Assembly (NCBI GenBank): GCA_037446155.1
Contig: JBBIJE010000008.1
Span: 94,049-158,048, forward strand
From: Myxococcales bacterium
Lineage (GTDB): Bacteria > Desulfobacterota > Binatia > UTPRO1 > JBBIJE01
Length of the DNA stretch: 64,000 nucleotides
Direction: 5' to 3'
The notes beneath the pieces were generated by a model. It was given only the letters and a program-made list of their open reading frames with translations. It was not told the DNA's origin and ran no database searches. A program made the translations under genes and the position numbers. Shown here piece by piece: positions 20,050-45,517 of this stretch; position 1 is the first letter of the stretch; each line of letters opens with the position of its first letter.

Positions 20050-20065
20050 TGGCATGAGCGTTGCA
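20050..20065 (+). promoter_or_regulatory. Sigma-54 (-24/-12) promoter upstream of the NtrC-type regulator gene.
   Basis: TGGCATGagcgTTGCA matches the TGGCACG-N4-TTGCA consensus, with GG and GC at the correct spacing. It lies about 220 bp upstream of the ATG at 20287. Confidence 0.55.
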
Positions 20066-24594: not shown

Positions 24595-26418
24595 TCAGCC
24601 GGCCGGCGCCTCCTTTTCCTCTGTGCCTAGAGGGCCGTAGCCCTTGGGGTCGTGGTCCTTGCCGTGGCAGGTGAGAAAGCAGCGCCCGCTGTCCGCCCCG
24701 AGTGGTTGAAAGGAGAGAGCCCCGGAGGAGCTGGGCTGGACTATCGGCTCTCCGGTCTCGTCGCGCAGCATGAAATTGATAAGCGCCGGGTTTTGACGCG
24801 AGCCGTGGGGGTCGTGACAGATGGCGCACGAGGATTTTTCCCCGACGATGTGCTTGCGGTGTTTGAAAGGCTGATCGGTAAGGACGGCGGCGCGGTTGTG
24901 GCATTTGTAACAGAGGGCGTACGAGGCGAAAGATTCCTGCACCTCTTGGCCCTCTTGGCGGTATTCGCGCTCGAGAAGGGGCTCGAAATTCGATCCGTGG
25001 GGCCCTGCCGGCCCGGTTCCGCCGGCGCCGGGTCCATCTTCGCTGCTGTGACAGTCTGTACAGTATAAGATACTGCCAGAGGTTAGCGGCGGCTCCAGGC
25101 CGACGATCGTGAAGTTGCGTCCCGGCCCCTCCACGGGGTGGTAGGAGGGGTTTGCAAGATCGAAAGCCAACCTGAGATCGGTCAAGGGGTCTTGGCGCTC
25201 GATCCTCGGGGCGAGCGCGTTCGATATGCCGTGACACTTGAAGCAGACCTCGTACTGAAATTGAGCCTCGGCGATCGAGCTTCCCGCGGCGGTGACTCCT
25301 GAGACGCCCGTCAATGCCCCCGACACCGCCGGAGCCATCCCGGAATCGGGATTCGTCGCATGGGGGTCGTGGCAGTCGACGCACTCCACGTGGCGCGTCA
25401 TGGTGAGCGGGTCCTCGACGGGATCGTGCACGCCGGCTGCGACATCGACCGGATGGCGGCTGAACTTCAGGAACTCCTCAGCGATGTCCTTGGCCGCCAC
25501 GGCTCCGTTGTGACACGCGAGACACACGTCCTCCTCGAGGTCGGATCTGAGCAGCCGGGGGCCGCTCGGGGCCGAGTGCGGCGTGTGGCAGTTCTCGCAT
25601 GCGTTCTCCGCCACGGTTTGAAAGTCGGAGTCGGGCCAAGGGTCGGGGGGCGTTCCGTTCCAGGTTGCGGAAGAGAGCGCGTGGGTGGAGCTCACCCAGC
25701 GATCCGGCCTGTGACAGGCAAGGCAGAGGTCGCCGAACCGCGGGTCGGTGACGAGGAACTTGGGAAACCGGTCGGTATGGGGGTCGTGGCAGCTCGTACA
25801 TTGGAGCTGGCCGGACTGGTCGAGCTTCACGTGACTCGGAAGGAGGTCCGGCGAGACGAGCTCCCCTCGGCGCGAGGCCAGCGTGAGGTCGTAGAGGAAG
25901 GAAATCGGGTGGTCGTCCGAGAGGTCGGTGCCTAGTACCGCACGGCCCGTGAGTGGTCCTGCCGAGGGTGCCGGTCCCCCGCCCGTCTCCCTGATGGCGC
26001 CCAGGGCGAGAGTGCCGTCGTGACAGCTCAGGCAGAGCCGAGAGACGCCGGTCGGCTGCTCGAGCGCCGCTTCCAGTGTCGAGCTTTCGTAAAGCTGATA
26101 CACTTCGAGCGACTGCTCCCGGTTCCAAAGCGCCCGGCTGGGGTTCGCGTTGTGCGGTATGTGGCAGAAGATACAGAGGTTTCCCTCCCCCCCCGCCAGT
26201 CCGATCGATGGATTCGGGACACTCAGATTATGGACCGTCGTCTCGATTCCGGCCTGCGCAAGGGGCACGGCGGGCAAGCGTGCCAAAAGAGCCAGTACCA
26301 GCGCGACGAAGGCCCTGGCGGCTTTGATCCGGGCTCTTTCGCTAACCGCTCGGGTGGCGGTCGCTTGCGCTACAACCGGCGGTCGCAACCCCGAGCAGCA
26401 TCTATTGGCCCCTATCAC
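24595..26418 (-). CDS. Multihaem c-type cytochrome with 11 CxxCH motifs plus one CX3CH (about 12 haems), secreted.
   Basis: Signal peptide ...LLARLPAVPLAQA. Haem motifs are CIFCH, CLSCH, CTSCH, CLACH, CENCH, CLACH, CVDCH, CFKCH, CTDCH, CYKCH, CAICH and CFLTCH. Several are of the doubled CxxCHxPH(N/G) type. Confidence 0.8.
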   Translation of the reverse strand: MIGANRCCSGLRPPVVAQATATRAVSERARIKAARAFVALVLALLARLPAVPLAQAGIETTVHNLSVPNPSIGLAGGEGNLCIFCHIPHNANPSRALWNREQSLEVYQLYESSTLEAALEQPTGVSRLCLSCHDGTLALGAIRETGGGPAPSAGPLTGRAVLGTDLSDDHPISFLYDLTLASRRGELVSPDLLPSHVKLDQSGQLQCTSCHDPHTDRFPKFLVTDPRFGDLCLACHRPDRWVSSTHALSSATWNGTPPDPWPDSDFQTVAENACENCHTPHSAPSGPRLLRSDLEEDVCLACHNGAVAAKDIAEEFLKFSRHPVDVAAGVHDPVEDPLTMTRHVECVDCHDPHATNPDSGMAPAVSGALTGVSGVTAAGSSIAEAQFQYEVCFKCHGISNALAPRIERQDPLTDLRLAFDLANPSYHPVEGPGRNFTIVGLEPPLTSGSILYCTDCHSSEDGPGAGGTGPAGPHGSNFEPLLEREYRQEGQEVQESFASYALCYKCHNRAAVLTDQPFKHRKHIVGEKSSCAICHDPHGSRQNPALINFMLRDETGEPIVQPSSSGALSFQPLGADSGRCFLTCHGKDHDPKGYGPLGTEEKEAPAG

Positions 26419-26431
26419 GTTCCCTCCCTGC

Positions 26432-28525
26432 TCAAAATCTTCTGATGACCTCCAGTGCCACCCTGTCTTCGCGACTATCGGTTGCCAGGACGGAGCGATT
26501 GAAATGATCGTAGCTGAGCGTCCATTCGAGCGCGCGAAGCTCCCCTCTGATCCGCCCCCCGAAATCGAAAAAGTCGGTATCGCCGGAGAGCGAATCGCGC
26601 CGAAGCCTAGCCCCGGCGAACGTCTCGAGCTGAAAAAGGGTGACCGGACGCCAGGTCATGTTGGCGCGAAACGTGTAGAATTCGGTTTCTCGGGTCGGGT
26701 TTTCGAAGCTAACCAACGACTGCGATCCACTCAGGCCCACCCTGAGCCGCGGTGTGAACCTGTACACCACGACTTGGTTGAAATCGAAAGATTCGAAGGT
26801 AAGGCGCTCCGAGCGGTAGTTACGATACTGGTTGAACGCCGAAGCGATCGCCGCCCCGCGCTCCCAGCGAAGCTCCACTCCGGCCGTGTCAGATTTTATG
26901 TCCTCGAGAAATCCCTGATCGTCGCCGCTCATCAGCCTTTCGTAGGTGCGCTCGTTGATGTAGAAAATATGGATCAGGCCGAAGTCGAGACCCACATTGG
27001 AGCTTACAGCGGTCGTCGAGAAACGCAACTCGGGCGGCACTTCGAAGGTATAGTCAACGAGAACCGTTTGCCCTTCCGCGATCAGCCCGAGCGGGTTGCG
27101 CTCCACCTCCAGCCTATCTCCCACCACCGTCAGGCTGTAATCGGGTCCCTCTTCGAAAATCGTCGTTCCGGTCACGTCCGTTATGACTACCGTCGCCGGA
27201 TCGACACGGCGGTTGTCGAGGAAGAACGTGCCGGCGGGACCGAAAGTGTGGCTTTCTGCGAAGACGTCGATCCTGCCTGTCGGGACCGTCTGGTCGTCGA
27301 TCCGATACGACCCTGCCACGCCGGCCAGAAAAAACCCCTGCCACGGGATGCGCTTGCGGTACGAAAGATTCGCGTTGGGGCCGTAAGAGGTGAAATCGCC
27401 TTGGGTGAAGTCCGAGCGTGTGCCGCTTAGCAAAAGGGAACTGTTTAGCGACTGATAATATTGATGGTTGACGCCGACCGAGCCTGAGTGGGTTCTGGTT
27501 TCCGAAAACTCCGATTCCAGGTTCGCGAAGCTGTACCTATAGACGGTGGCGAGGTCCCGGTGATGGGTAAGCCGCAAACCCTCGCTCGCCGTTATCGAGC
27601 GGGACGAGATACTGCCCGAGCGGTCGAAGAGACGGGCCGAGGAGTTGAGGCTGTTATTCGAGAACTCCCCAAAAAGGAGCCGATGGACCACGCTTGCGTC
27701 GTGAGCGGTAAAGCTGCTGAAGGGGTTGAGCAGGTTGTCGAAGTCGGTGAACTCGTAGCGCAGATCGGCGTCGCTTCGTTCTTTCGAATGTCGCGCCGTC
27801 AACCCGGCGATCCGCCGCCTCTCCTCGCGCTCGGAGCGTGAGCCCGCGGCCCTGAACTCCTCGTCCAATTCTTCCTCGCGGGCGTAGACCGTGGCCGGGA
27901 GCGTTCTCGATCTCATGTTGACAGTCGCCCCTTTGGATTCGATCCTGACGTCGGAGGTCCCGGCGAAGTCGCGAGATATCGTGCTGTCGTTGCGAAAAGC
28001 GAAAGCGTCGAGGCTTATTCTTCGCTCTCTCAAGAGCGTCGCCCGCGCATCGTAGCCTATGAGCGTTCCGTCGCCGCTCGGCCCTCCGGCGCTTCCGGAG
28101 TTCTCCTCTTGGAACAAGCCGAACTCCCCTGCAAGCCGAAAGGACAAGAGGTCGGGGCTGTACAGAAAACCTCGGTTGTGGATTCCCAACCTCTCGCGAG
28201 CGAGGAGCCTGCGTAAAGTTACGTCCTCGCCCGAAGCCGGTGAAACGGTTTCGTCGCTGTAATCGGCCCGGCCGATTATCCTACCCCCCCAATCTCCCAC
28301 GCTCAGCCACTGCGCTTCGGCCTTAGCGCCGCCGAGCGCCTGCAACATGGAGCACCCGAGCCCGAGGGCCACCAGCCGGAGAATGCGCCCGCCGGCTCTT
28401 GCGTGCTTCTCGATTGGGCGCCCGCGAGCGAAGGGGCTCTTGGTATCGCCCGCCGTTCCGTTGGTGCTTACCGCCGCGGCAGCCGCACGAGGTCGGAGTG
28501 CGACAAGTTCCCAGTCAGCAGCCAC
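26432..28525 (-). CDS. Outer-membrane beta-barrel protein (porin-like). The exact start is uncertain; a signal-peptide-like segment RILRLVALGLGCSMLQALGGAKA lies about 50 codons into the ORF.
   Basis: 697 aa. C-terminal ...VIRRF ends in Phe, as in Omp85/porin-type barrels. Alternating amphipathic beta-strand pattern rich in Y/F/R/D/S. Its stop is 14 bp upstream of the multihaem cytochrome start. Confidence 0.5.
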   Translation of the reverse strand: MAADWELVALRPRAAAAAVSTNGTAGDTKSPFARGRPIEKHARAGGRILRLVALGLGCSMLQALGGAKAEAQWLSVGDWGGRIIGRADYSDETVSPASGEDVTLRRLLARERLGIHNRGFLYSPDLLSFRLAGEFGLFQEENSGSAGGPSGDGTLIGYDARATLLRERRISLDAFAFRNDSTISRDFAGTSDVRIESKGATVNMRSRTLPATVYAREEELDEEFRAAGSRSEREERRRIAGLTARHSKERSDADLRYEFTDFDNLLNPFSSFTAHDASVVHRLLFGEFSNNSLNSSARLFDRSGSISSRSITASEGLRLTHHRDLATVYRYSFANLESEFSETRTHSGSVGVNHQYYQSLNSSLLLSGTRSDFTQGDFTSYGPNANLSYRKRIPWQGFFLAGVAGSYRIDDQTVPTGRIDVFAESHTFGPAGTFFLDNRRVDPATVVITDVTGTTIFEEGPDYSLTVVGDRLEVERNPLGLIAEGQTVLVDYTFEVPPELRFSTTAVSSNVGLDFGLIHIFYINERTYERLMSGDDQGFLEDIKSDTAGVELRWERGAAIASAFNQYRNYRSERLTFESFDFNQVVVYRFTPRLRVGLSGSQSLVSFENPTRETEFYTFRANMTWRPVTLFQLETFAGARLRRDSLSGDTDFFDFGGRIRGELRALEWTLSYDHFNRSVLATDSREDRVALEVIRRF

Positions 28526-28759: not shown

Positions 28760-29905
28760 ATGCGGATCTACGCAGACGCGGGGGGCTCGGCACTTGGTTG
28801 CGTGCAGCGAAGAGGGCTGCGGGCGGGGCTCGTTGCGGTCGCGGGCCTGGTGGCGACGGTGTTCCTTAGCGGCTGCCCTGCTCGGAAATCGGGCATGGAG
28901 CTTATACCGCTCATGTGGCCCGAGCCCCCCGAGACTCCGAGAATCCGGTTCGTCACGGCCTTCGCCAGCGAAAGGGATTTGAGGAGCGGCTTCGATGTGG
29001 GCAAGTTCCTGCAGGACGTCGTCATCGGAAAGCCGCCGCCTGTTTGGCACCTCTACGCTCCGATGGGCGTGGCGGTTTCCGATGACAAGCGGGTTTACGT
29101 TGCCGACTATGGGCAATCGATGGTTTACATATTCGACCTCAAGCGAAACCGCGTAAAAACCATCGGGGAGGACGGAGGCTTCGGTAAGCCCACGGATGTA
29201 GCGGTTGACGCCAAAGGGGAGGTGTACGTTCTCGATCAGCCGAGCAACGCGGTGGTTGTACTCGATGCCGACGGCAATTCGCTTCGGGGCATGGCGCTCG
29301 AGCACGTTATTCGCCCGACCGGGATAGCGATCGACGACCAAAGAGGGCGCATGTACGTGGCGGACTCCTCGAAAAGGGAGTCTACCGAGCACTATGTCAG
29401 GGTGTACGATAAAGAGAGCGGAGCGTTTATCCGAAACATCGGTAACGGCAGGGGATTCGAGGAGGGAAACCTCTACTTTCCCACCTTCGTTGCGGTGGAC
29501 AGCACGGGGAATATCTACGTCTCGGACACGATGAATAGCCGCGTGGTGAAATTCGACCCCGAGGGGAATTTTCTCATGACCTTCGGTAAGAGGGGGGACC
29601 AGTTCGGCGAGTTCGACAAGCCCAAGGGGGTAGCTCTCGATACCTTTGGCAACCTCTACGTGGTCGACTCGAGCTGGAGCAACGTCCAGATCTTCAATCA
29701 ACGTGGCCAGGTCCTTCTCTTCTTCGGTGGCAGAAGCCGCTACCCTGGCATGCTCGAGAACCCAACCGGGATAGACATAGACGGGAATAACACGATTTAC
29801 GTGGCCGATACCTTCAACCGCCGCGTGAACGTCTATCAACTGGTAAATACCACCGCAGGGGACAGCTTTCTCCAGTTGCCCGAGCCGAGCGGGGAGGAGA
29901 AGTGA
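28760..29905 (+). CDS. NHL-repeat six-bladed beta-propeller lipoprotein.
   Basis: Lipobox FLSGC. Repeated NHL blades P.GVAVD..G.VYVAD..N..V..FD. Start chosen at ATG 28760, which has a GAGGGGAAAGG RBS (the ORF-track start at 28724 is a GTG). Confidence 0.7.
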   Translation: MRIYADAGGSALGCVQRRGLRAGLVAVAGLVATVFLSGCPARKSGMELIPLMWPEPPETPRIRFVTAFASERDLRSGFDVGKFLQDVVIGKPPPVWHLYAPMGVAVSDDKRVYVADYGQSMVYIFDLKRNRVKTIGEDGGFGKPTDVAVDAKGEVYVLDQPSNAVVVLDADGNSLRGMALEHVIRPTGIAIDDQRGRMYVADSSKRESTEHYVRVYDKESGAFIRNIGNGRGFEEGNLYFPTFVAVDSTGNIYVSDTMNSRVVKFDPEGNFLMTFGKRGDQFGEFDKPKGVALDTFGNLYVVDSSWSNVQIFNQRGQVLLFFGGRSRYPGMLENPTGIDIDGNNTIYVADTFNRRVNVYQLVNTTAGDSFLQLPEPSGEEK

Positions 29906-30714
29906 AAGGCGCTGGGAGAGCCGCGCGCGCCGCCGTCGTTGTCGGGACGCTTATCGCCGTTGCAGCTTGTCCTCGATTCGCGGCTGGCGGGCCGGATCCT
30001 GGAACCGGCATTACCGATAGCCCCCACGACCTAACCGCGGGGCACGGAACCGCCTCGACGACCGACGAAGCCGCAAGCATTTGCGTCTTTTGTCATGCGC
30101 CTCACGGAGGGGGCGGCCAGGCGCCCGTCAGCACGAGGCTTCTCTGGAACCACAGGCTTTCCGCCCAAAGCTTTAGCTGGAGCGATCAAACCCATACGGT
30201 TGGGGGGACGGAGCTTCCGACCAACATAGGCACATGGGCGGGGCCCAGCAAGAATTGCTTGTCTTGCCATGATGGGACGGTCGCGGTTGGCGATGTTCTG
30301 CGCACCGGTTCTCCTGGGCTCCCCTCGTTTACCGTGACAGGCTCCCGCCTCGTTGACGGGAAGATCGCCGCGGGTAACCTCATCGTGGTCGAACCGGGCG
30401 GAGATTTGAGCGGAAACCACCCGGTCGGTGTGCCCTATCCTTTCGGAGGTGTGCCCAGCACTTACAACAACATCGCCACGGGGCCAGGTGTGGAGCTTTC
30501 CGAGTACGTTGCCGCGCCGGTAAACGTCAAGCTCTTCACCGACATCGGAAATGACGTGATAACCGGACCGACGACCGGGAGGACAGGGATCGAGTGCGGA
30601 AGTTGCCACGACGTTCACAACCGACGGGCCTTGGATCGCCCTCTGTTGCGAGACCTTTTCACGTCGGGGGCAGGGGCTTCGGCGCGTCTTTGCTTGGACT
30701 GCCATAATCTCTGA
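29902..30714 (+). CDS. Tetrahaem c-type cytochrome (doubled-CxxCH type), paralog A.
   Basis: Signal peptide VVVGTLIAVAA. Haem motifs CVFCHAPHG, CLSCHDGT, CGSCHDVHN and CLDCHNL. The GTG start overlaps the NHL gene stop. Confidence 0.75.
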   Translation: MKGAGRAARAAVVVGTLIAVAACPRFAAGGPDPGTGITDSPHDLTAGHGTASTTDEAASICVFCHAPHGGGGQAPVSTRLLWNHRLSAQSFSWSDQTHTVGGTELPTNIGTWAGPSKNCLSCHDGTVAVGDVLRTGSPGLPSFTVTGSRLVDGKIAAGNLIVVEPGGDLSGNHPVGVPYPFGGVPSTYNNIATGPGVELSEYVAAPVNVKLFTDIGNDVITGPTTGRTGIECGSCHDVHNRRALDRPLLRDLFTSGAGASARLCLDCHNL

Positions 30715-30932: not shown

Positions 30933-30948
30933 TGGCATGAGAGTTGCT
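30933..30948 (+). promoter_or_regulatory. Sigma-54 (-24/-12) promoter upstream of tetrahaem cytochrome paralog B.
   Basis: TGGCATgagagTTGCT has correct GG/GC spacing. It lies 60 bp upstream of the ATG at 31009. Confidence 0.55.
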
Positions 30949-31008
30949 CGAAGGGCGTGCCAGGGGCGCCGGTGGCGTGACCCAAATTTCAGGAAGAGGA
31001 GGAAAGCT

Positions 31009-31815
31009 ATGAACGTTAGAAAAGGGTGCCACGTAACAGTAGCCTTGTGCGCGGGGCTTGCGCTGGCGCTCGCTCCTAAGCTCGTGTGGGCCCAGGCCGC
31101 ACCGGGTGCGGGAATCGAAGATAGCCATCACGATTTCACAGCCGGGCACGCGACCGCCTCGACGACCGATGCCGGAGCGGGGATTTGCATCTTTTGCCAT
31201 GTACAGCACCGGCAGGGGGCTCCAGCGACTGCCAGCACGAGGCTTCTTTGGAACCACAAGCTCTCGTCGTTGAGCTACTCATGGAGCGACGTTACCAAGA
31301 CGGTCGGTGGGACGGATTTGCCGACCAACCTTGGGACTTGGGCCGGGCCTTCGAAGAACTGCCTCTCTTGCCACGACGGGACGGTCGCGGTGGGTGATGT
31401 GTACCGTACCGCCGCATTCCCCGCGACGTCGTTCACGGTCACCGGGACCCGGATCACCGATGGGAAGATCAGCGCAAGCTTTCTCCTGATCCCGAGCGCC
31501 ACTGGCGATCTCAAGGGTAACCACCCGGTCGGCGTGCCCTATCCCTTCGGCGGGGCGCAGAGCACGTACAATGGGATCACCACCGGCTCGGGCGTAGCCA
31601 CCGGTGATTACAAAGCCGATCCGCAAAACGTCCGCATCTACACCGACGTGGGCAACGATTACCAGATCGGTGGAACCACCGGGCAGGCCGGAATCGAGTG
31701 CGGAAGCTGCCACGACCCGCACAACAGGGACGTCAAGGAAGATCCGCTTCTTCGCGATTTCTTCACGCTCGGGAGCGGTTCTCCGAGCGCGATCTGCCTA
31801 GACTGCCACTTCTAG
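31009..31815 (+). CDS. Tetrahaem c-type cytochrome (doubled-CxxCH type), paralog B.
   Basis: RBS AGGAAGAGGAGGAAAGCT-ATG. Haem motifs CIFCHVQH, CLSCHDGT, CGSCHDPHN and CLDCHF. It is collinear with paralog A along its whole length, including the shared NCLSCHDGTVAVGDV block. Confidence 0.75.
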   Translation: MNVRKGCHVTVALCAGLALALAPKLVWAQAAPGAGIEDSHHDFTAGHATASTTDAGAGICIFCHVQHRQGAPATASTRLLWNHKLSSLSYSWSDVTKTVGGTDLPTNLGTWAGPSKNCLSCHDGTVAVGDVYRTAAFPATSFTVTGTRITDGKISASFLLIPSATGDLKGNHPVGVPYPFGGAQSTYNGITTGSGVATGDYKADPQNVRIYTDVGNDYQIGGTTGQAGIECGSCHDPHNRDVKEDPLLRDFFTLGSGSPSAICLDCHF

Positions 31816-31897: not shown

Positions 31898-31973
31898 GAT
31901 TCCGCTCTCCCTGCGCGGCGGGCCCTGTGCTAACCTTTCCTAAATGAGGTGGACTTGCCGTCGGATGGGGGGG

Positions 31974-32648
31974 ATGAAGCTCATTCTCGCTCGCACTCGC
32001 AGAGTTCTTGGAGCTTGGCGGCTAACTCGCTTGCGCAGCGGATCGCTTAGACTAGTGGCGCTCGCTTCGGCCCTGCTCTTCGTTGCCTGCGAGAGCCGAA
32101 CCCGCTACCTCGTTCTTTCACGACTCGTTGACGGGATGCCGTCTTACGAGGAGTGGCTCGAATCTTCCCCTCCCAAGCCGCTTCGCCGCTATGCGCCGCG
32201 CAAGACTCGCGAGGCTTTGGCTCCCGCCCCCGTAATGCCGACCCCCGAGCCTGCGAGAAACGAGATCGAGCAGGCGAAGGCGAAAGATGAAGCCTTCGCC
32301 ATGCTCCCCAAGGACGATAGCGGTGCCGTGGATTGGGTTGCCGCGCTCCGCGAGGGCGTGATCTCGCCTAGAACCGCGATCGAAGGTGGAGGCGAGCCGC
32401 TGGAGCAGATGCCGATCGACGTGGAGATAGGAGCGGAAGACCCGGCAACGAGCGCGATCTTTCCCCATCCGGCTCATACGCAGATCATACTCTGCGACTC
32501 CTGCCATCCGGAGCCATTCCAAATGGCGGCCGGCTCGACGGAGATGTCGATGGATGCGATGTACGAAGGCCGCCTCTGCGGCCAGTGCCACGGGACGGTC
32601 GCCTTCGGCTTGGAGAGTTGCGGCCGGTGCCATCCGAACATGCGATGA
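31974..32648 (+). CDS. Trihaem c-type cytochrome lipoprotein. The start is uncertain (31944 or 31974).
   Basis: Lipobox LLFVAC. Haem motifs CDSCHPEPF, CGQCHGTVAF and CGRCHPNM are clustered in the C-terminal 60 aa. Confidence 0.6.
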   Translation: MKLILARTRRVLGAWRLTRLRSGSLRLVALASALLFVACESRTRYLVLSRLVDGMPSYEEWLESSPPKPLRRYAPRKTREALAPAPVMPTPEPARNEIEQAKAKDEAFAMLPKDDSGAVDWVAALREGVISPRTAIEGGGEPLEQMPIDVEIGAEDPATSAIFPHPAHTQIILCDSCHPEPFQMAAGSTEMSMDAMYEGRLCGQCHGTVAFGLESCGRCHPNMR

Positions 32649-32983
32649 GGACTCTGGTAGCCTACACTATGAGCCTGGCATTGGGGCTGGGCGTTTGGGC
32701 TGTCTCTGTACCCGTGGCCCAAGCTGGGCCGGGAGACATCGTATTCGAGCGCGAGAAGGCCGTGGGCGTGGACCCAGCCGTCTTCCCGCACTGGATCCAC
32801 CGAATACGCTACACTTGTAGTGTGTGCCATCCGGCGCTTTTTCAGATGAAGCGCGGCGAGGATCCGGTCACGATGAAAAGCATCGCCGCCGGCGAACACT
32901 GCGGTAAGTGCCACAATGGGCGCGTTGCTTTTCCGATCTCGCTCACGACCTGCGTGCGCTGCCACTATATCCCGGCAGACTGA
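32645..32983 (+). CDS. Trihaem periplasmic c-type cytochrome (c7/c3-like, small).
   Basis: ATGA start overlaps the upstream stop. Signal peptide MRTLVAYTMSLALGLGVWAVSVPVAQA. Haem motifs CSVCHPALF, CGKCHNGRVAF and CVRCHYIP. The CxxCHxxxxAF spacing is the same as in the upstream gene. Confidence 0.7.
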   Translation: MRTLVAYTMSLALGLGVWAVSVPVAQAGPGDIVFEREKAVGVDPAVFPHWIHRIRYTCSVCHPALFQMKRGEDPVTMKSIAAGEHCGKCHNGRVAFPISLTTCVRCHYIPAD

Positions 32984-33307: not shown

Positions 33308-33323
33308 CGGCATGCGCCTTGCT
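33308..33323 (+). promoter_or_regulatory. Sigma-54 (-24/-12) promoter upstream of the giant multihaem cytochrome gene.
   Basis: cGGCATGcgccTTGCT has correct GG/GC spacing. It lies 93 bp upstream of the ATG at 33416 and is nearly identical to the promoter at 42973. Confidence 0.5.
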
Positions 33324-33415
33324 CGGCCTGGTAGCCAAGACGGTAGGCCCGGGGGCTTGGCGTGTGGGAGTGGAGGGGCCTCGCTAAGTCCAAGCAGAGA
33401 GGAGGAGGCAGCTTC

Positions 33416-36400
33416 ATGCGAGGACAAGGTAGGACGACATTGGTCATCGGCGCCGTGGGTTTGCTGGCGCTATTTTTTGCGTCGGGTAAAGCCCTTGCCG
33501 ATCCGAGTTATTTCACTTCGCGGTGCGCGCTTTGCCATGCGGACGATACGCCGACTTGTGATGGGTGTCACGGGCACGTGGTTGGGGGCCTCAAGGCTGT
33601 GACCGACAAACAGCAATATTTACCTGGTGAGACGGTTACCGTGACTTTTCAGTCCTGGAATTGGGGCGGTTGGGTTAGGGCGGTCTTGTATGACGAGACG
33701 ATGACGGAAGTGGATCGGGTAACGGGTCCCACGGGGACTGGGGACGATGGTAGTGGGGATCCGAGTCTGTGGTTTCCGGTGGTTTTGAGTGCGCCTGCAC
33801 CTATGGCATCGGGGTTTTACACGTGGAGCGTTGGGTGGTTCGGGAGTCCTGGGACGCCAGGAGGTGCGTACCCGCACATCCAGGATGTGGTTTCCACGAA
33901 CCAGTTCGAGGTGACGACCTCCGGTAGCACCACTACCACGACCAGCACTACTACGACGAGCACCGCGAGCACGACGACGAGCACTGCAAGCACGACGACC
34001 AGCACGGCGACAACGACCTCGACCACGACGACTACGACATTGCCGCCTCCCGCTGCGGAGCTGGATCATTTCTTGTGTTACGCGACGAAGCTCAAGAAGC
34101 TGATTTCGGTAGATCTGAGCGACCAGTTCGATTCAGGAACCTACACCGGCAACGTAGCCAAACTCTTTTGCGCGCCCGCGGACAAGAATGGCGAGGGGAT
34201 CTCCGATCCGGATACGCATCTTCTGTCCTACAAAATCAAGGGCTTGCATGTGGGCCGGACGAATGTGGAGGTTTTGGATCAGTTCGGGACGTACGTCTAC
34301 GACACGAAGAAAACCGATAGCCTGATGATTCCGACGGCAAAGAGCATAGCTCCGGCTCCTCCGCCCGGCCCGCCGAATCCAGCGAGTTTGGTGGATCATT
34401 ACCGGTGTTTGAAGGTGAAGACGAGCGCTGGGACGCCCAAGTTTCCGAAGGACAAGAGCGTTCAGGTTGTGGATCAGTTCGGGGCCGCGCGGACCTTCTT
34501 CGTGAAGAAGCCCTCTCGGTTGTGTTTGCCTGTGGACAAGAACGGGGAGGGGATCAAGAACCCGGACATGCACCTCATGTGTTACAAGGGCAAGACGTCG
34601 GTTAGAACGTCTGCCGTTGGAGTGCAGATCAACAACCAGTTCGGTGCGGATACGATCGCGCTAAAGAAGGAGGCAGAGCTTTGCCTGCCAGCTCGAAAGA
34701 ACCCGCGGAAGGTAAATCCGGGAGACCCGGTGTTGGCGCCGGCTGCCGGGTACATCGGGTCTCCGACCTGCATGGAGTGCCACGAGGAAAAGTACTGGGG
34801 CTGGATCGACACGCTCCATCGGTTGCCGATTCGTGACACCAACGAGCCTGGGCTTACGGGCAAGGCTATCGTGGCGGACAGCGACGGTGACGGGACGGAC
34901 GACTTCAAGGAGGGAACGAATCTCGCAACCGCGCCAAACGCCACCCCATTTGCCGTGTACGGCTCCAACGCGCCGGTATTAGGGTTCGATCCCGGCCGGG
35001 TGGATCCGAACAGCGGAGCGATGGGGGTTTACACTATCACGATCGGGCCCATCACTTACGACATAACCCGCACGCACGGCGGAAACGGGTACTGGAAGCA
35101 ACGCTATCAGACCAGGATAGGTGACAGTTACTACTACCTGCCGGTTCAGTACAACGAGACCGCTAACGCATACGTCGTTTACAATGGCGGCGACTGGTAC
35201 GACGGCTCGAACAATCCGCGCTACACCAATCCTGCTACACTCGAGGCCGACATCGACAAGAGTCGTTCCTACGAGCGCAACTGTGCGGGATGTCACAACA
35301 CCGGCGTCGACGTCGAGGTGGATGGCGCCGGGCAGTGGGTGACAGGGTACGTGGAGCTCGGGATCGGCTGCGAGGACTGCCACGGGCCGGGTGAAACTCA
35401 TGCGGCGAGCATGGATCCCGCCGACATCATAAACCCGGGCAAGTTCGGGCCGTGCGACGGCGACCTGGTTGCGGGCGACGGCAACAAGGACGGTACCTGC
35501 AGGGAATCCGGCGTGCCTTGCGATGCGGTGGATTTACCATTCCCGGTGAACTCTCCTGATTGCCTGGCTTCTGCGAACGAAGTCTGCGGCCAGTGCCACG
35601 GCCGTGGGGCGAGCACCCTGGTGATGAACGGCAAGACGTTGGGCTACCCGGCCAAAGACGACGGTGCCGGCGGCTTCCAGGGGTTCGTACCGGGCAATAT
35701 CCTGGCAGACTTCTACGCCTTCACGACCTCGACCGGGGACTACTGGGGTTTGAACCAGGTGTTTGGCGGGGAAGGGCACACGGTTCCATCGAGCCCGAAC
35801 TCGTTCGTAGCCTCCAAGAGCCATCACCAACAGTACCTCGACTGGCTCATCAGCCCGCACGCGCCCGATAACTTCTACGACCCGACGTGCTTTAGCTGCC
35901 ACGACTCGCACGGAAGTGGTAACGAGCACAACATCGTGGAAAGCCTCGAGGAAGACGGGGTCGAGATTCCGACCAAGGTGGATGACAATAGTCTCTGCTT
36001 GGCTTGTCACGCGACTCACGGCCCCTTTGCGGGCGTGACCAAGGAGCAGGTGGCCGAGATCGGCTCGGGGACCACGCCGCCCGAGATCGTTGACGCCGTC
36101 CTCGACCACATGGCCGAGGAGGCCGGGATGGGTGGAGCCTACGATCCACTGGGATCCGGTGTGGGCCGCTGCACGAGCTGCCATCTGCCGCAGCTTGCGA
36201 AGTCGGCGGTAGGGGGCACGGATGCCGAGGGACACACCACGGGCGACGTTACCACTCACACCTTCACGATCATCTGGCCTAGCGTGAACGAGCGCCTGAC
36301 CGGAAGCGACAAGAGCATGAGCAACTCCTGTACCGGCTGCCACAGCACGGGCTCGCCACTCGGCATGGACGAGGAGCTCTTCGAGTGGGCCAAATCGGGC

Positions 36401-37330
36401 CACGCCGACTTGACCGCACGGCACTGGCGGTATGCGGCGGGCGAGGAGCGGGCGGCTTGCGTGCGGTGTCACTCGGGCAACGGGTTCGTCGATTTCCTCG
36501 CGGGGATCCCCGAGGGGGATCGGCGCACCGAGCCCAAGATGGTCACCTGCTACGCTTGTCACGACGGGACACCGGGCGACTTGCACCCGGTGCGCGCGGT
36601 GGCTTCGGTGACCTTCCCGTCGGGGTCGGTTATCACGGCGGGTGACGATGCCAAGATCTGCATGAACTGCCACCAGGGCAGGCAGAGCAAGAGCAGTGTG
36701 GACACGTACCTGCTGACCCACCCCGATCCGAGCCCGATCAACTTCGGCTCCGTCAACCCGCATTACTTCGCGGCTGCGGCGGTCTTCTTCGGCTCCTCGG
36801 TTAGCGGTATGTACCAGTACGACGGCAAGACCTATCTCGGTGAGTCACCCCACCGGCCGTTCAAGGGTTACTGTCTCGACTGCCACTTGAGCGAGACGCC
36901 CGGTAGCGACGACGTGGGCGGGCACACGATGGCGATGGTCGCCGACGGCCAGGAGAACACGGCAGGTTGCGGTTGCCACGCTTCTCAACCTGGCTTGGAT
37001 GCCTACAGGAACCCGTTTGGCGGAGCCGTGGACTACGACGGCGATGGGAACACCTCCGAGGGCATCAAGGGTGAGATCCAGACCATGATGGACGATCTCA
37101 TAGCGGCTCTGAACGCTGCCGGCATCACCTGCACCGACTCGTATCCGTACTGCTCGGGCTGGAACGGCACGACCGAGCAGCAGAAGAGCCAGCTCAAGGC
37201 CGCGTACAACTACCGGTTCTTGAAGACCGAGCATGGCGCTTATGCCCACAACGGGCTGTACGCGCTCCAGATCTTGCACGACTCGTATGCAGATTTGACG
37301 GGAGGCCCGCACGCAGGTGTAAGGCCCTAG
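33416..37330 (+). CDS. Giant secreted multidomain c-type cytochrome of 1304 aa. Order: N-terminal dihaem module, Thr/Ser-rich linker, four copies of a cysteine-containing repeat, then a C-terminal multihaem domain of about 12 haems, for about 14 CxxCH in total.
   Basis: RBS GAGGAGGAGG. Signal peptide LVIGAVGLLALFFASGKALA. CxxCH motifs are CALCH, CDGCH, CMECH, CAGCH, CEDCH, CGQCH, CFSCH, CLACH, CTSCH, CTGCH, CVRCH, CYACH, CMNCH and CLDCH. The linker is about 40 residues of S/T. Confidence 0.8.
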   Translation: MRGQGRTTLVIGAVGLLALFFASGKALADPSYFTSRCALCHADDTPTCDGCHGHVVGGLKAVTDKQQYLPGETVTVTFQSWNWGGWVRAVLYDETMTEVDRVTGPTGTGDDGSGDPSLWFPVVLSAPAPMASGFYTWSVGWFGSPGTPGGAYPHIQDVVSTNQFEVTTSGSTTTTTSTTTTSTASTTTSTASTTTSTATTTSTTTTTTLPPPAAELDHFLCYATKLKKLISVDLSDQFDSGTYTGNVAKLFCAPADKNGEGISDPDTHLLSYKIKGLHVGRTNVEVLDQFGTYVYDTKKTDSLMIPTAKSIAPAPPPGPPNPASLVDHYRCLKVKTSAGTPKFPKDKSVQVVDQFGAARTFFVKKPSRLCLPVDKNGEGIKNPDMHLMCYKGKTSVRTSAVGVQINNQFGADTIALKKEAELCLPARKNPRKVNPGDPVLAPAAGYIGSPTCMECHEEKYWGWIDTLHRLPIRDTNEPGLTGKAIVADSDGDGTDDFKEGTNLATAPNATPFAVYGSNAPVLGFDPGRVDPNSGAMGVYTITIGPITYDITRTHGGNGYWKQRYQTRIGDSYYYLPVQYNETANAYVVYNGGDWYDGSNNPRYTNPATLEADIDKSRSYERNCAGCHNTGVDVEVDGAGQWVTGYVELGIGCEDCHGPGETHAASMDPADIINPGKFGPCDGDLVAGDGNKDGTCRESGVPCDAVDLPFPVNSPDCLASANEVCGQCHGRGASTLVMNGKTLGYPAKDDGAGGFQGFVPGNILADFYAFTTSTGDYWGLNQVFGGEGHTVPSSPNSFVASKSHHQQYLDWLISPHAPDNFYDPTCFSCHDSHGSGNEHNIVESLEEDGVEIPTKVDDNSLCLACHATHGPFAGVTKEQVAEIGSGTTPPEIVDAVLDHMAEEAGMGGAYDPLGSGVGRCTSCHLPQLAKSAVGGTDAEGHTTGDVTTHTFTIIWPSVNERLTGSDKSMSNSCTGCHSTGSPLGMDEELFEWAKSGHADLTARHWRYAAGEERAACVRCHSGNGFVDFLAGIPEGDRRTEPKMVTCYACHDGTPGDLHPVRAVASVTFPSGSVITAGDDAKICMNCHQGRQSKSSVDTYLLTHPDPSPINFGSVNPHYFAAAAVFFGSSVSGMYQYDGKTYLGESPHRPFKGYCLDCHLSETPGSDDVGGHTMAMVADGQENTAGCGCHASQPGLDAYRNPFGGAVDYDGDGNTSEGIKGEIQTMMDDLIAALNAAGITCTDSYPYCSGWNGTTEQQKSQLKAAYNYRFLKTEHGAYAHNGLYALQILHDSYADLTGGPHAGVRP
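33915..34045 (+). repeat. Low-complexity ACC/ACG/AGC codon repeat encoding the Thr/Ser-rich linker inside the giant cytochrome gene.
   Basis: About 130 nt of imperfect triplet repeats (accaccacgaccagcactactacgacgagcacc...) encoding TSGSTTTTTSTTTTSTASTTTSTASTTTSTATTTSTTTTTT. Confidence 0.5.
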
Positions 37331-42972: not shown

Positions 42973-42988
42973 CGGCATGCGGCTTGCA
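42973..42988 (+). promoter_or_regulatory. Sigma-54 (-24/-12) promoter upstream of the haem/PKD/NHL paralog operon.
   Basis: cGGCATGcggcTTGCA has correct spacing. It lies about 55 bp upstream of the TTG start at 43043. Confidence 0.55.
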
Positions 42989-43042: not shown

Positions 43043-45517
43043 TTGTGCCGGAAGCTTGCTAGCGCTGCGATCGTCGGTCTGTTTTTCCTTGGCCTTGCCG
43101 GGGGAAGCGCACTTGCCGACCCGAGCTACTTCGCCATCCGCTGCGCCCTTTGCCACTATGACGACAACCCGACCTGCTCCGGCTGCCATCAGCACGTTCA
43201 GGGCGGCCTCGTGGCGAGGACCGACAAGACTCAGTACTGGCCCGGCGAAACCGTAAGAGTGACGCTTTCGTCGTGGGACTGGCCGGGTTGGGTGCGGGCG
43301 ATCCTTTACGACCAGAGTGGGCGCGAGCTCACGCGCGTAGGCGGGGCCACCGGAACCGGCGACGACGGAAGCGGCAATCCCGCGCTCGAGCTCCCCGTGG
43401 TCTTGGTTGCCCGCGCTCCCCTGACGGCGGGGTCTTACAGGTGGACCGTGGCGTGGTTTGGCAGCGGAGGCTCTCCCGGCAACGAGTTTCCCCATCTGGA
43501 AGAGCCGGTACCGACGAACTCCTTCGACGTCAGCGGCAGTCCCCCCAGTACGACGACCACCACCACGTCCTCCACTACTACGACCGTTCCAAGCACCACG
43601 ACGACCACCACCACCACGACCACCACCACGGCGACCGCGACCACGACCAGCACTACCGCGAGCACTACGACCACGAGCACCTCCTCCACCACCTCCACGA
43701 CGCTTCCGGGCCCCCTCGACGATTTCCTCTGTTACAAGGTGCGGGCTAGGCAGGACGTCAGCGTAAATTTGAGCGATCAGTTCGATTCGGGCCAATATCT
43801 GGGGAGGGTGGCAAAGCTTCTCTGCGCGCCGGCTGACAGCGGCTCGGGTATATCGCACCCGCAAACGCACCTTATGTCTTATCGGATCCAGGGGCCCCAC
43901 CTGCGGCGAACGGGCATCGAGGTGGTGAACCGTTTTGGCACCTATTACTTCGACACCAAGAAGACCTACAGCCTCATGGTGCCTACGGCAAAGAGCCTGA
44001 TTCCCGACCCGCCGCCGGGGCCGCCTGACGCCGGCGCCGTGGACCACTATCGGTGTTTGACTATAAGGACAACGACGGGCACGCCCGAATTTCCAAATGG
44101 GCTTACGATTGCCGTAACCGACCAGTTCGGAACCCACAACTTCGCGATCAAGAAGCCGCGCACCCTCTGCGTGCCCACCGACAAGAATGGAGAGGGAATC
44201 GAGCGGCCACAGGCATACCTTACCTGTTACAAGGGAAAGGCTGACCCGAGGGTGTCCGTTGCAGGGGTCCAAGTCAACAATCAGCTTGGGCAAGCCGTGT
44301 TGAACCTGAGCAAAGAGATAGAGCTTTGCGTGGCCTCTCAGCCGCCACCTGGACCAACCACGACTACGACGACCACGACGAGCAGCACGACCAGCACCAC
44401 GGTCACGCCCACTAGCACCACTACCACCACGACCACCGTGCCGGGCAACGAGCCGCCGACGATCGCCGTTAGCGCCGATCGCACTGAAGGGCCCATAGCC
44501 TTGAGCGTTCGGTTTAGCGCTTCGGCTACCGACCCCGATGGAGAGGTCGTTGCGATCCACTGGGATTTCGATGACGGCACGGTGGGGAGCGGGGCTTCGC
44601 TTTCTCACGTATTTCACGTGGCCGGCGGCTACAGAGTTACCGCCACGGCAACCGACAACCGGGGAGGGCAGGCACGGGCTACGATCCCAATAGCGGCAAG
44701 GCCGCTCGCGGGCGGGTCCGTGGATCAGCCGTATCCGACCCGCCTGGCGCTCGGACCCCAGGGGAAGCTCTACGTAACCGATGCCTCCGCCGGGTCGGTC
44801 TTCGTTTACGATTCTAGTTTGAATCCTGCGGGCGAAATCGCTGGGATCGATCTTCCCTTGGGTGTGGCGGTCGACAGCCAGGGGCGAATTTACGTGGGTA
44901 GCGACGGGGCCGACTCGGTCGAGGTCTACGACGGCGCCGGGGTCAAGCTTTACAGCATCGATGCGGGCGGGATCTCGATGCCGAACGACATTGTCATAGA
45001 TACCGCGGACATTCTCTACGTCGTCGATAGCCGGGCGGATACGGTGCGAGTGTATAACGCCGCAGGCACGTGGCTTAGAGACATCGGGGGCCCGGGCGAC
45101 GGTGCGGGAGAGTTGCGCTTTCCCGCCGCGGTGGCCATCGGCGGCGAGCCGCCGGAGCTTTACGTAGCCGATCAGGGCCACTCGCTCGTTCAGGTTTTCG
45201 ATCCCGGCGGAACGTTCCTGCGCAGTTTCGGCGGGGCGGTGGGGGCGTTTTCACCGCAATGGAAGGGCCTCTTCGTGAGGATGCAGAGCCTTTCGCTGGA
45301 TGGACGCGCAGCCTTGCAAGTGGCTGATACCTACATGGATCGGGTGCAGTTTCTCGATCGCACGACGGGTGAGTTTCGCGGCTACTACGGCGAGTTCGGC
45401 GGTGGCGCCGGGCAGCTCAATCTACCCCTCGACCTGGTGGTTACTGGGGACAACCGAGCCATCGTGGCGGACGCGGAAAACCACCGGATCCAGTGGTTCG
45501 ATCTCGAGGTGCCCTAA
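43043..45517 (+). CDS. Secreted paralog of the giant cytochrome. Same N-terminal dihaem module, Thr-rich linker and four cysteine-containing repeats, followed by a second Thr-rich linker, a PKD domain and a C-terminal NHL beta-propeller.
   Basis: TTG start 10 nt after AGGAGG. Signal peptide ...LASAAIVGLFFLGLAGGSALA. Haem motifs CALCH and CSGCH. The PKD domain shows IHWDFDDGT. Repeated NHL blades LYVTDASAGSVFVYD and LYVVDSRADTVRVYN. It is collinear with 33416..37330 over the first 430 aa or so. Confidence 0.75.
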   Translation: MCRKLASAAIVGLFFLGLAGGSALADPSYFAIRCALCHYDDNPTCSGCHQHVQGGLVARTDKTQYWPGETVRVTLSSWDWPGWVRAILYDQSGRELTRVGGATGTGDDGSGNPALELPVVLVARAPLTAGSYRWTVAWFGSGGSPGNEFPHLEEPVPTNSFDVSGSPPSTTTTTTSSTTTTVPSTTTTTTTTTTTTATATTTSTTASTTTTSTSSTTSTTLPGPLDDFLCYKVRARQDVSVNLSDQFDSGQYLGRVAKLLCAPADSGSGISHPQTHLMSYRIQGPHLRRTGIEVVNRFGTYYFDTKKTYSLMVPTAKSLIPDPPPGPPDAGAVDHYRCLTIRTTTGTPEFPNGLTIAVTDQFGTHNFAIKKPRTLCVPTDKNGEGIERPQAYLTCYKGKADPRVSVAGVQVNNQLGQAVLNLSKEIELCVASQPPPGPTTTTTTTTSSTTSTTVTPTSTTTTTTTVPGNEPPTIAVSADRTEGPIALSVRFSASATDPDGEVVAIHWDFDDGTVGSGASLSHVFHVAGGYRVTATATDNRGGQARATIPIAARPLAGGSVDQPYPTRLALGPQGKLYVTDASAGSVFVYDSSLNPAGEIAGIDLPLGVAVDSQGRIYVGSDGADSVEVYDGAGVKLYSIDAGGISMPNDIVIDTADILYVVDSRADTVRVYNAAGTWLRDIGGPGDGAGELRFPAAVAIGGEPPELYVADQGHSLVQVFDPGGTFLRSFGGAVGAFSPQWKGLFVRMQSLSLDGRAALQVADTYMDRVQFLDRTTGEFRGYYGEFGGGAGQLNLPLDLVVTGDNRAIVADAENHRIQWFDLEVP
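43549..43705 (+). repeat. Low-complexity ACC/ACG codon repeat encoding a Thr/Ser-rich linker; a second copy lies at 44355-44441.
   Basis: Encodes TTTTTSSTTTTVPSTTTTTTTTTTTTATATTTSTTASTTTTSTSSTTSTT. The complementary strand gives artefactual poly-Val ORFs (43435..43698 and 44338..44580). Confidence 0.5.

Follow-up and report, generated by a model that had tools for sequence, protein, structure and literature searches.

A probably extracellular multihaem cytochrome that joins a dihaem head, a Thr/Ser linker and DUF7450 repeats to an OcwA-type haem domain

Results

The gene and its product

The gene described here encodes a multihaem cytochrome of 1304 amino acids (the target) and lies in a stretch of 64,000 nucleotides, the window, taken from a Myxococcales bacterium (GTDB lineage Bacteria; Desulfobacterota; Binatia; UTPRO1; JBBIJE01; GenBank assembly GCA_037446155.1, contig JBBIJE010000008.1, positions 94,049 to 158,048 of the forward strand). 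Coordinates within the window are collected in Table 1. The layout proposed in an initial annotation, made from the DNA letters, was found to be correct in most respects: there is an open reading frame (ORF) with a signal peptide, 2 + 12 CxxCH motifs, a Thr/Ser linker, four Cys-containing sub-repeats and an N-terminus shared with a paralog in the window at 56% identity. Among the sequences searched, these parts are combined only in the target and its ortholog, in line with the statement of the initial annotation that the combination could not be recognised.

The signal peptide reads MRGQGR-TTLVIGAVGLLALFFA-SGKALA and is followed, after the predicted cut, by DP; as read from the sequence, a lipobox is lacking and the first Cys is residue 37. 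Exactly 14 CxxCH motifs are present in the target (two at residues 37-52, twelve at residues 452-1157); from its composition, chance alone would give about 0.05. With these motifs and the signal peptide, the target is predicted to be a Sec-exported c-type multihaem cytochrome.

An ortholog was found on a 296-kb contig of the JGI metagenome 3300010938 (locus L001), which stems from a separate sample and is collinear with the window across 17 kb at 91% nucleotide identity. The gene caller had predicted this ortholog at 1085 amino acids (P0001), shortened at the Thr/Ser stretch; the complete frame of 1304 codons is open, contains no indel and encodes a protein about 95-96% identical to the target. 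The ratio of nonsynonymous to synonymous substitution rates (dN/dS) between the two genes is 0.08 for both the head and the linker and 0.07 for both the DUF7450 block and the haem domain, and purifying selection thus acts on every domain, the linker included. The flexible Thr/Ser tether of the initial annotation is therefore present, and its length is the same in the ortholog. That the gene might be a pseudogene in sibling strains, a possibility which the initial annotation had also raised, does not agree with this intact frame and its dN/dS of 0.07-0.08. The exact target protein is, moreover, on record from an NCBI contig of 167 kb. A housekeeping protein, aspartate-semialdehyde dehydrogenase, has its best named relatives in MAGs of Myxococcales, Candidatus Binatia and Deltaproteobacteria, at 67-68% identity, which points to a diderm lineage resembling the deltaproteobacteria.

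Table 1. Features of the target gene and of its surroundings in the window.
Feature	Position	Strand	Basis or remark
Target ORF	33362..37330	+	ORF listing; ATG at 33416, product 1304 amino acids
Ribosome-binding site GAGGAGGAGG	33399..33408	+	direct sequence reading; 7 nt 5' of ATG 33416
Sec signal peptide, residues 1-28, cut after ALA	33416..33499	+	sequence
Dihaem head, residues 29-166	33500..33913	+	profile search, AlphaFold2 model
Thr/Ser linker, residues 167-210, 44 amino acids, 86% T/S	33914..34045	+	sequence composition
Tandem DUF7450, residues 211-432; two units of about 110 amino acids, two DQFG...KK...LCxP sub-repeats each	34046..34711	+	
OcwA/NrfA-superfamily multihaem domain, residues 433-1304 (872 amino acids)	34712..37327	+	12 CxxCH, CGCH site, C-terminal helical bundle
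Sigma-54-type (-24 GG / -12 GC) promoter-like motif CGGCATGCGCCTTGCT	33308..33323	+	pattern search; 93 nt 5' of ATG
Near-identical -24/-12 motif before the paralog	42973-42988	+	
Near-identical -24/-12 motif before a tetrahaem gene	30933-30948	+	
Sigma-54-type motif before an NtrC-type activator gene	20050-20065	+	
Paralog: head, T/S linker, DUF7450, T/S linker, PKD, NHL propeller	43043..45517	+	Pfam PKD, NHL, DUF7450; head profile
13-CxxCH cytochrome, 616 amino acids	45530..47380	+	13 bp past paralog stop
Two c7-type trihaem genes	31944-32648, about 32645-32980	+	TIGR04257 66.2 and 74.5 bits (cut-off 40); Pfam Cytochrome_C7
Two tandem tetrahaem genes	29902-30714, 30937-31815	+	about 65% identical to each other
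Candidate porin, 697 amino acids, haem-free	26432-28525	-	signal peptide, barrel-like composition, ends ...EVIRRF
11-CxxCH cytochrome	24595-26418	-	next after the 697-amino-acid gene

The C-terminal multihaem domain

The haem-bearing region behind the repeats measures 872 residues and not approximately 700, as had been estimated initially. A phmmer search of the PDB with the single sequence identified OcwA (6i5b, E 8e-18), and also OmhA (6qvm) and cytochrome c554. With a profile of the family, built from 18 members, the matches were OcwA (1.7e-36), OmhA (4.4e-23), NrfA (3.4e-9, C-terminal half), c554 (1.1e-8) and MccA (1.4e-7). Five blocks could be aligned to OcwA and OmhA, among them the first haem motifs, a c554-like block and the C-terminal helices. 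On these profile matches we place the domain in the OcwA/OmhA clade of the NrfA superfamily.

Several better-known families were considered and rejected. NrfA proper was ruled out by the absence of CxxCK anywhere in the target and by NCBIfam models of the NrfB/NrfA type, which scored far under their cut-offs. The MtrC/OmcA/MtrF family model PF22113 reached 21.2 bits against a cut-off of 30, and decahaem NCBIfam models (TIGR03507 type) reached 36-44 bits against cut-offs of 192-325. The nanowire cytochromes OmcS, OmcE and OmcZ gave no PDB match at E<=1 with the single sequence or at E<=0.01 with the profile.

A search with residues 431-1304 yielded 270 proteins, and about 80 among the matches listed are 31-45% identical to the target over all 872 residues. 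A scan of a genome collection with the whole protein returned haem-domain relatives only, at 21-27% identity, in Desulfobaccales, Thermodesulfobacteriota, Gammaproteobacteria, Nitrospirota and archaeal metagenome-assembled genomes (MAGs). The family has 13 common haem sites. The thirteenth is C-G-C-H (CX1CH) in the target, at residues 1185-1188 (36968-36979), and in its ortholog; the relatives have CX2CH (most of them) or CX4CH at this site. The predicted haem count of the domain is hence given as 12, possibly 13. About ten His residues outside the motifs are invariant in the family, against 13 haems.

Most homologs of the haem domain open with a lipoprotein signal (…LLAGCG…) and 30-45 extra residues, whereas others carry CarboxypepD_reg extensions or C-terminal domains of the type IX secretion system (T9SS). 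The gene context was sampled at two homolog loci that lie on long contigs (P0095 and P0146), and in both the lipoprotein cytochrome is accompanied by a haem-free protein with an aromatic end of the beta-barrel type and by a small cytochrome with 8-12 haems. One cluster consists of a 13-haem lipoprotein of 908 amino acids, a haem-free protein of 461 amino acids ending in …YVSWKF and a 288-amino-acid protein with 12 haems. The other comprises a haem-free protein of 414 amino acids ending in …SVEMGF, a 228-amino-acid protein with 8 haems, a lipoprotein of 916 amino acids and a 9-haem lipoprotein of 878 amino acids. Since most homologs are lipoproteins and the sampled loci are porin-cytochrome clusters, the family is predicted to reside normally on the outer face of the outer membrane. 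The initial annotation had proposed a surface-extended, mineral-contacting haem array; homology and context agree with an array of that type, the nearest solved relatives being OcwA and OmhA and the closer homologs being lipoproteins.

The dihaem head

The head consists of a peptide of about 30 residues with C37-H41, C48-H52 and then H54, followed by a seven-strand beta-sandwich of the immunoglobulin (Ig)/MG2 type that carries the conserved H154. A profile built from four close sequences was searched against 1.84 billion cluster representatives and matched 218 of them at E<=1e-3 and 159 at E<=1e-10, so that the family comprises at least 218 clusters; the target itself scores 2.5e-55 and the paralog 5.8e-53. 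A scan of the genome collection with a narrow alignment of the head gave no matches.

The family has a well-defined signature, to which the target conforms: CxxCH, a spacer of 4-14 residues (mode 6), CxxCHxH, a beta-sandwich with GW.RA.LYD, and a late conserved His. Both CxxCH motifs are found in 137 of the 139 representatives that include the haem peptide and CxxCHxH in 135, and the late His, close to the C-terminal end of the domain, shows 93% conservation. Because two CxxCH motifs and two further His residues are conserved, bis-His ligation is suggested. In 136 of the 139 representatives the head starts at residue 60 or before (median 30), directly after the signal peptide.

The AlphaFold2 model of the head has a pLDDT of 86 and a pTM of 0.82, with lower confidence for the N-terminal haem peptide of about 30 residues. 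Foldseek, which the initial annotation had proposed for this region, returned only generic Ig or nanobody matches for the model (E>1e-3, TM about 0.4). No Pfam or NCBIfam model covers residues 29-166, and no significant sequence match was obtained in the PDB; Pfam scans of single members showed MG2 below threshold only, in 7 of 32 members (best E 2.4e-5). The head family appears to be new, as neither a curated model nor a solved structure corresponds to it and a literature search gave no paper.

The partners of the head are mostly long stalks of Ig-type domains, such as ASH/HYDIN/DUF1573 ("choice-of-anchor D") and Glucodextran_B, and further CarboxypepD_reg, PASTA, MopE motifs and PKD/NHL. Of 149 representatives, 10 have additional haem motifs outside the head, with up to 31 CxxCH in total, and neither DUF7450 nor an OcwA-like domain is present in any of the 149. 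Many members end in tails that resemble MYXO-CTERM (GGCS…hydrophobic…RRR) or are of the FlgD-Ig/T9SS type. With the surface-sorting signals at the C-terminus, the head at the mature N-terminus would be the free, distal end of these proteins. The "proximal dihaem anchor" of the initial annotation is not in line with this position, which marks the head as the predicted functional tip.

Two members of the family deserve separate mention. A MAG of Candidatus Poribacteria encodes a five-haem head protein with MopE metal-binding motifs (locus L058, 7001-8275), directly upstream of an operon for a molybdopterin oxidoreductase, an Fe-S subunit and a NarJ-like chaperone; this protein may be the cytochrome subunit of the adjoining molybdoenzyme. 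Geobacter metallireducens GS-15 encodes a head member of 916 amino acids (ABB30537.1, UniProt Q39YY7; CP000148.1, about 326.0-328.8 kb; locus L055, 8001-10751), in which the head is combined with Ig domains of the Glucodextran_B/Big_13 type. Its gene adjoins genes of the NrfA/NrfH type and a type VI secretion system (T6SS) cluster, and a literature search on this protein found no paper.

The DUF7450 repeats

Residues 211-432 contain four copies of the pattern V-x-V-x-(D/N)QFG…KK…L-C-x-P. These repeats had been described as novel in the initial annotation; they correspond to the Pfam family PF24247 (DUF7450), which matches the target in two stretches (residues about 215-430) with E 3.4e-20 and 72.8 bits (cut-off 27); for the paralog the score is 54.1 bits. 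Disulfides are proposed for C221-C252, C331-C370 and C389-C423, whereas of the fourth expected pair the Cys is gone on both sides (S271/I305). The pairing is deduced from this loss in pairs, as disulfide partners would show it.

The first homology search gave 94 matches, about 90 of which shared the DUF7450 block alone with the target. The partners of this block are highly diverse: beta-propellers, NHL, PKD, RHS/YD toxins, subtilases, penicillin amidase, disintegrin, right-handed beta-helices, BNR and cysteine-rich repeats. The block is C-terminal in 45 of 92 proteins, situated right behind the signal peptide in 10 and internal in 37, and in 35 of the 92 a run of T/S/P lies within 50 residues of it. 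A confident structure model was obtained, for which no counterpart was found in the PDB, and as far as this model goes the fold appears to be without precedent; a literature search on DUF7450 found no paper. The block is mobile, mostly terminal, disulfide-bonded and separated by linkers from very different payloads. It resembles in this architecture the binding and retention modules CBM and SLH, and by this analogy we consider it an even chance that DUF7450 binds to, or retains proteins on, a component of the surface or matrix.

Paralog, gene neighbourhood and regulation

Residues 14-427 of the target are 56% identical to the paralog, which starts with TTG at 43043, behind GGAGG. The arrangement of the paralog and the 13-CxxCH cytochrome gene downstream of it is shared by the sibling contig and a more distant relative. 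The cassette of head, linker and DUF7450 is therefore tied to a large cytochrome in both its copies, by fusion in the target and by adjacency in the paralog.

Eight ORFs of the window have at least two CxxCH motifs. The pair of c7-type trihaem genes lies immediately upstream of the target. The two tetrahaem cytochromes each resemble the N-terminal third of the 11-haem cytochrome (26-28% identity), which together with their similarity to each other indicates a recent local duplication of cytochrome genes. We regard the genes for the 697-amino-acid protein and the 11-haem cytochrome as a candidate porin-cytochrome pair, the idea of a porin being derived from composition and the C-terminal Phe. 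The 697-amino-acid protein has no match in Pfam or the PDB and does not resemble the products of the porin-like genes in the homolog clusters, and NCBIfam gave only a phage tail tube model below its cut-off.

The sigma-54-type motif upstream of the target is perfectly conserved in the sibling contig, compared with 82% identity in the rest of the intergenic region. The same holds for the corresponding motifs of the paralog and the tetrahaem gene: all three are fully conserved within intergenic DNA that is 78-86% identical. This suggests a single sigma-54 regulon for the cytochrome island. A scan for consensus promoters and terminators gave no informative result. A histidine kinase with Cache and HAMP domains (18446-19957) and a sigma-54 activator (20287-21660) are encoded nearby.

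The contig of a related, more distant genome (P0002, locus L054), with a cassette about 60% identical to that of the target, carries the paralog and behind it, at the contig end, the first part of a cytochrome gene. This genome lacks the whole block from about 24.4 to 37.4 kb, from the 11-haem gene to the target, and a vWA/TSP3 gene abuts an acyl-CoA dehydrogenase gene instead. The target thus belongs to a lineage-specific cytochrome island. As judged from these comparisons, the cassette was probably duplicated and a copy of it fused to a haem domain of the lipoprotein family. Elsewhere in the window (4956-7652, + strand) a MoxR-type AAA ATPase is followed by a vWA protein; the ATPase matches Pfam bpMoxR, the MoxR component of MoxR-vWA-beta-propeller ternary systems, and these genes are unrelated to the target.

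Discussion

Comparison with known systems

OcwA of Thermincola potens (6I5B) is a terminal reductase with nine haems, exposed on the surface of a Gram-positive bacterium that reduces iron; in structure it is related to NrfA, c554 and MccA (PMC6703420). OmhA of Carboxydothermus ferrireducens (6QVM) is a surface cytochrome at the interface of cell and mineral (PMC7829351). The haem domain of the target is homologous to both at low identity, and is larger: OcwA has 9 haems in 526 amino acids and OmhA 11 haems, whereas the target has 12-13 sites in 872 amino acids. Unlike the target, these proteins stem from Gram-positives and lack a dihaem head, a Thr/Ser tether and DUF7450. The proper family of the haem domain is that of the lipoprotein cytochromes of about 900 amino acids and 12-13 haems ('cytochrome c3 family protein'; Candidatus Deferrimicrobium, MAGs of Desulfobacteria), which share the same 13 sites and are 35-45% identical to the target over the whole domain. 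These have a lipoprotein signal with a short spacer, and none has the head or DUF7450; the two that were sampled lie in porin-cytochrome clusters, whereas the candidate pair of the window is not directly adjacent to the target.

OmcB-type lipoproteins of Geobacter and MtrC/OmcA of Shewanella are multihaem proteins of the outer surface that are fed by a porin-embedded cytochrome. The role and place that we propose for the target are the same; it differs from them in lacking a lipobox and in belonging to another fold lineage (NrfA/OcwA).

The tethering of haems has a parallel in PgcA of Geobacter sulfurreducens, an extracellular protein with redox domains on flexible Thr-rich linkers for which tethered diffusion ('haems on a string') has been described (PMC11520253, PMC10570954). 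Similarly, a linker of 44 residues (86% T/S) and 222 haem-free residues lie between the haem-bearing parts of the target. The likeness is limited to this principle. PgcA has three small alpha-helical monohaem domains and (PT)x linkers, whereas in the target a dihaem beta-sandwich is tethered, via a T/S linker that is not a PT repeat and two non-redox domains, to an enzyme-like module with 12-13 haems. No sequence relationship between the two was found, and homology was rejected as no PgcA chain occurred among the PDB matches of the target or of the head profile.

The cytochrome domain of fungal cellobiose dehydrogenase is an N-terminal beta-sandwich that, on a flexible Thr/Ser-rich linker, swings between the catalytic domain and an external acceptor. 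That protein is eukaryotic, contains one non-covalent haem b with Met/His ligation and is not known to be related in sequence; it offers an analogy of mechanism only for the head of the target.

Proposed function and alternatives

We tentatively propose that the target is a secreted cytochrome of the OcwA type, retained at the cell surface or in the matrix and equipped with a tethered dihaem head, which would probably serve as a terminal reductase or electron carrier in extracellular electron transfer; we put the chance that this reading is right as a whole at slightly below even. Its parts differ in strength. The extracellular location, taken alone, is likely. A function of the head as a tethered relay is possible and considerably less secure.

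According to this proposal the C-terminal domain of 872 residues would be the working part, with its 12 (possibly 13) haems. The lipid anchor of the homologs would have been replaced in the lineage of the target by the cassette of head, 44-residue linker and two DUF7450 domains, in which DUF7450 would take over from the lipid as the device for retention on a component of the surface or matrix. The head would be a mobile redox relay on a leash, and its partners in electron exchange would be the large haem domain, neighbouring cytochromes or acceptors. About 266 residues without a cofactor (linker and DUF7450) part the head from the haem array, so electrons cannot run along the polypeptide, and any exchange would have to come from the head swinging on its leash. 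It appears, then, that electrons would be transferred by tethered diffusion and not through a fixed chain of haems. A linker threaded through a porin, forming a conduit from one polypeptide, was considered and rejected, as electrons would find no cofactor in the linker for their passage across the membrane.

A number of observations weigh against this proposal. The target has no recognised signal for secretion across, or sorting to, the outer membrane, and no lipobox. The head is also found on proteins without any other redox domain, the paralog included, and its primary role may thus not be that of a relay to a fused cytochrome. The sampled neighbourhoods of other head-family genes were mostly uninformative. 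DUF7450 has no known ligand or structural relative, so that its role in retention is argued from domain architecture alone. The structure models are free of haem, and His ligation is a proposal read from conserved residues. Finally, 5 kb separate the target from the candidate porin-cytochrome pair, which lies upstream on the other strand, and no homology of its "porin" to known porins could be detected.

The model of the initial annotation reverses the roles of the two ends: the head would be a proximal anchor, docked to the outer membrane or a porin-cytochrome conduit and receiving electrons there, and the tether would hold the haem array out as a nanowire-like contact to minerals. The cassette does sit exactly where the homologs have their lipid anchor, the head haems could take up electrons, and the candidate porin-cytochrome pair and four small cytochromes are encoded just upstream. 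However, the cofactor-free stretch of about 266 residues parts the two haem groups and leaves no continuous haem path, and no nanowire cytochrome (OmcS, OmcE, OmcZ) is among the sequence matches in the PDB, so that "nanowire-like" does not describe the target well. In other proteins the head is located opposite the C-terminal surface-sorting signals, and in the paralog it is present without a haem array of its own. Since there is no haem path and the head is distal in many other carriers, we judge this model unlikely.

A further explanation is that the head is a haem-dependent module for docking, sensing or export, shared by many surface proteins and incidental to the electron transfer of the target. 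The composition of the family lends itself to this view: 139 of the 149 representatives are without haem motifs beyond the head and have Ig-repeat stalks, PKD/NHL, CarboxypepD_reg or PASTA as partners, the gene neighbourhoods are heterogeneous, and the strict N-terminal place is characteristic of modules that have an early part in export or require a free N-terminus. Two covalent haem sites and two conserved His would nevertheless be costly for a purely structural role. The remaining 10 of the 149 are fused to extra multihaem regions, one member adjoins an oxidoreductase operon, and both copies of the cassette at this locus are tied to a large cytochrome. An incidental head of this kind is therefore also considered improbable, though by no means negligible.

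Alternatively, the target could be a periplasmic enzyme of the NrfA/OTR/MccA type that acts on a soluble substrate such as nitrite, hydroxylamine, sulfite or tetrathionate, with the cassette working inside the periplasm. Two of these substrates, nitrite and hydroxylamine, are reduced by OcwA itself (PMC6703420). The family profile matches NrfA, MccA and c554, about ten invariant non-motif His for 13 haems suggest that some haems may be open-coordinated, and the target lacks a lipobox or known outer-membrane sorting signal. The cytochrome genes immediately upstream are of the c7 type, and such cytochromes are periplasmic in Geobacter. Strong full-length homology to a characterised periplasmic reductase had been named in the initial annotation as the finding that would speak against a surface carrier. 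This is borne out in so far as the domain is a member of the NrfA superfamily, but the nearest solved relatives are surface proteins, the homology does not extend over the full length and CxxCK is absent. Moreover, the members of the family are lipoproteins, lie in porin-cytochrome clusters where sampled, or carry T9SS domains, and DUF7450 and long Thr/Ser linkers go with typically extracellular domains. A periplasmic enzyme thus seems rather doubtful, and somewhat more so than an incidental head.

Finally, an assembly chimera or a decaying pseudogene, as might be suspected because Thr/Ser-coding DNA is repetitive and of a misassembly-prone type and because the gene caller shortened the ortholog exactly there, is for practical purposes excluded by an ortholog from another sample that has the identical in-frame architecture of 1304 codons, free of indels and under purifying selection throughout, and by the record of the exact protein on a second contig.

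Significance

Extracellular electron transfer is usually explained by chains of closely packed haems, as in porin-cytochrome conduits, MtrC/OmcA and cytochrome nanowires. PgcA has recently added a second principle, that of tethered diffusion, and the target, if we read it correctly as a secreted OcwA-type cytochrome with a mobile head, would extend this principle to a large enzyme-like cytochrome with its own tethered dihaem satellite. The fusion architecture appears to be new, while surface cytochromes of the OcwA/NrfA lineage and the principle of tethered haems were already known. The analysis also exposes two modules without a functional description: the dihaem beta-sandwich head, with its at least 218 clusters, and DUF7450, which occurs in about 90 very different secreted proteins. 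The head member of Geobacter metallireducens belongs to a genetically tractable organism.

A wider and rather speculative reading of the sequence data, which we consider unlikely to be correct in full, is that the head is a general "electrical connector" that joins non-redox surface proteins, such as adhesin-like Ig stalks and PKD/NHL propellers, and large cytochromes to the extracellular cytochrome network, or else a reporter of the redox state of that network. Combined with DUF7450, the head would make up a modular display system that is specific to the lineage and serves extracellular electron transfer, with a logic comparable to that of cohesin-dockerin. If the head is indeed a relay or connector, many surface proteins that at present carry the label hypothetical would become part of the extracellular redox machinery, and, should the connector reading hold, the head family would be a new and widespread component of extracellular electron transfer.

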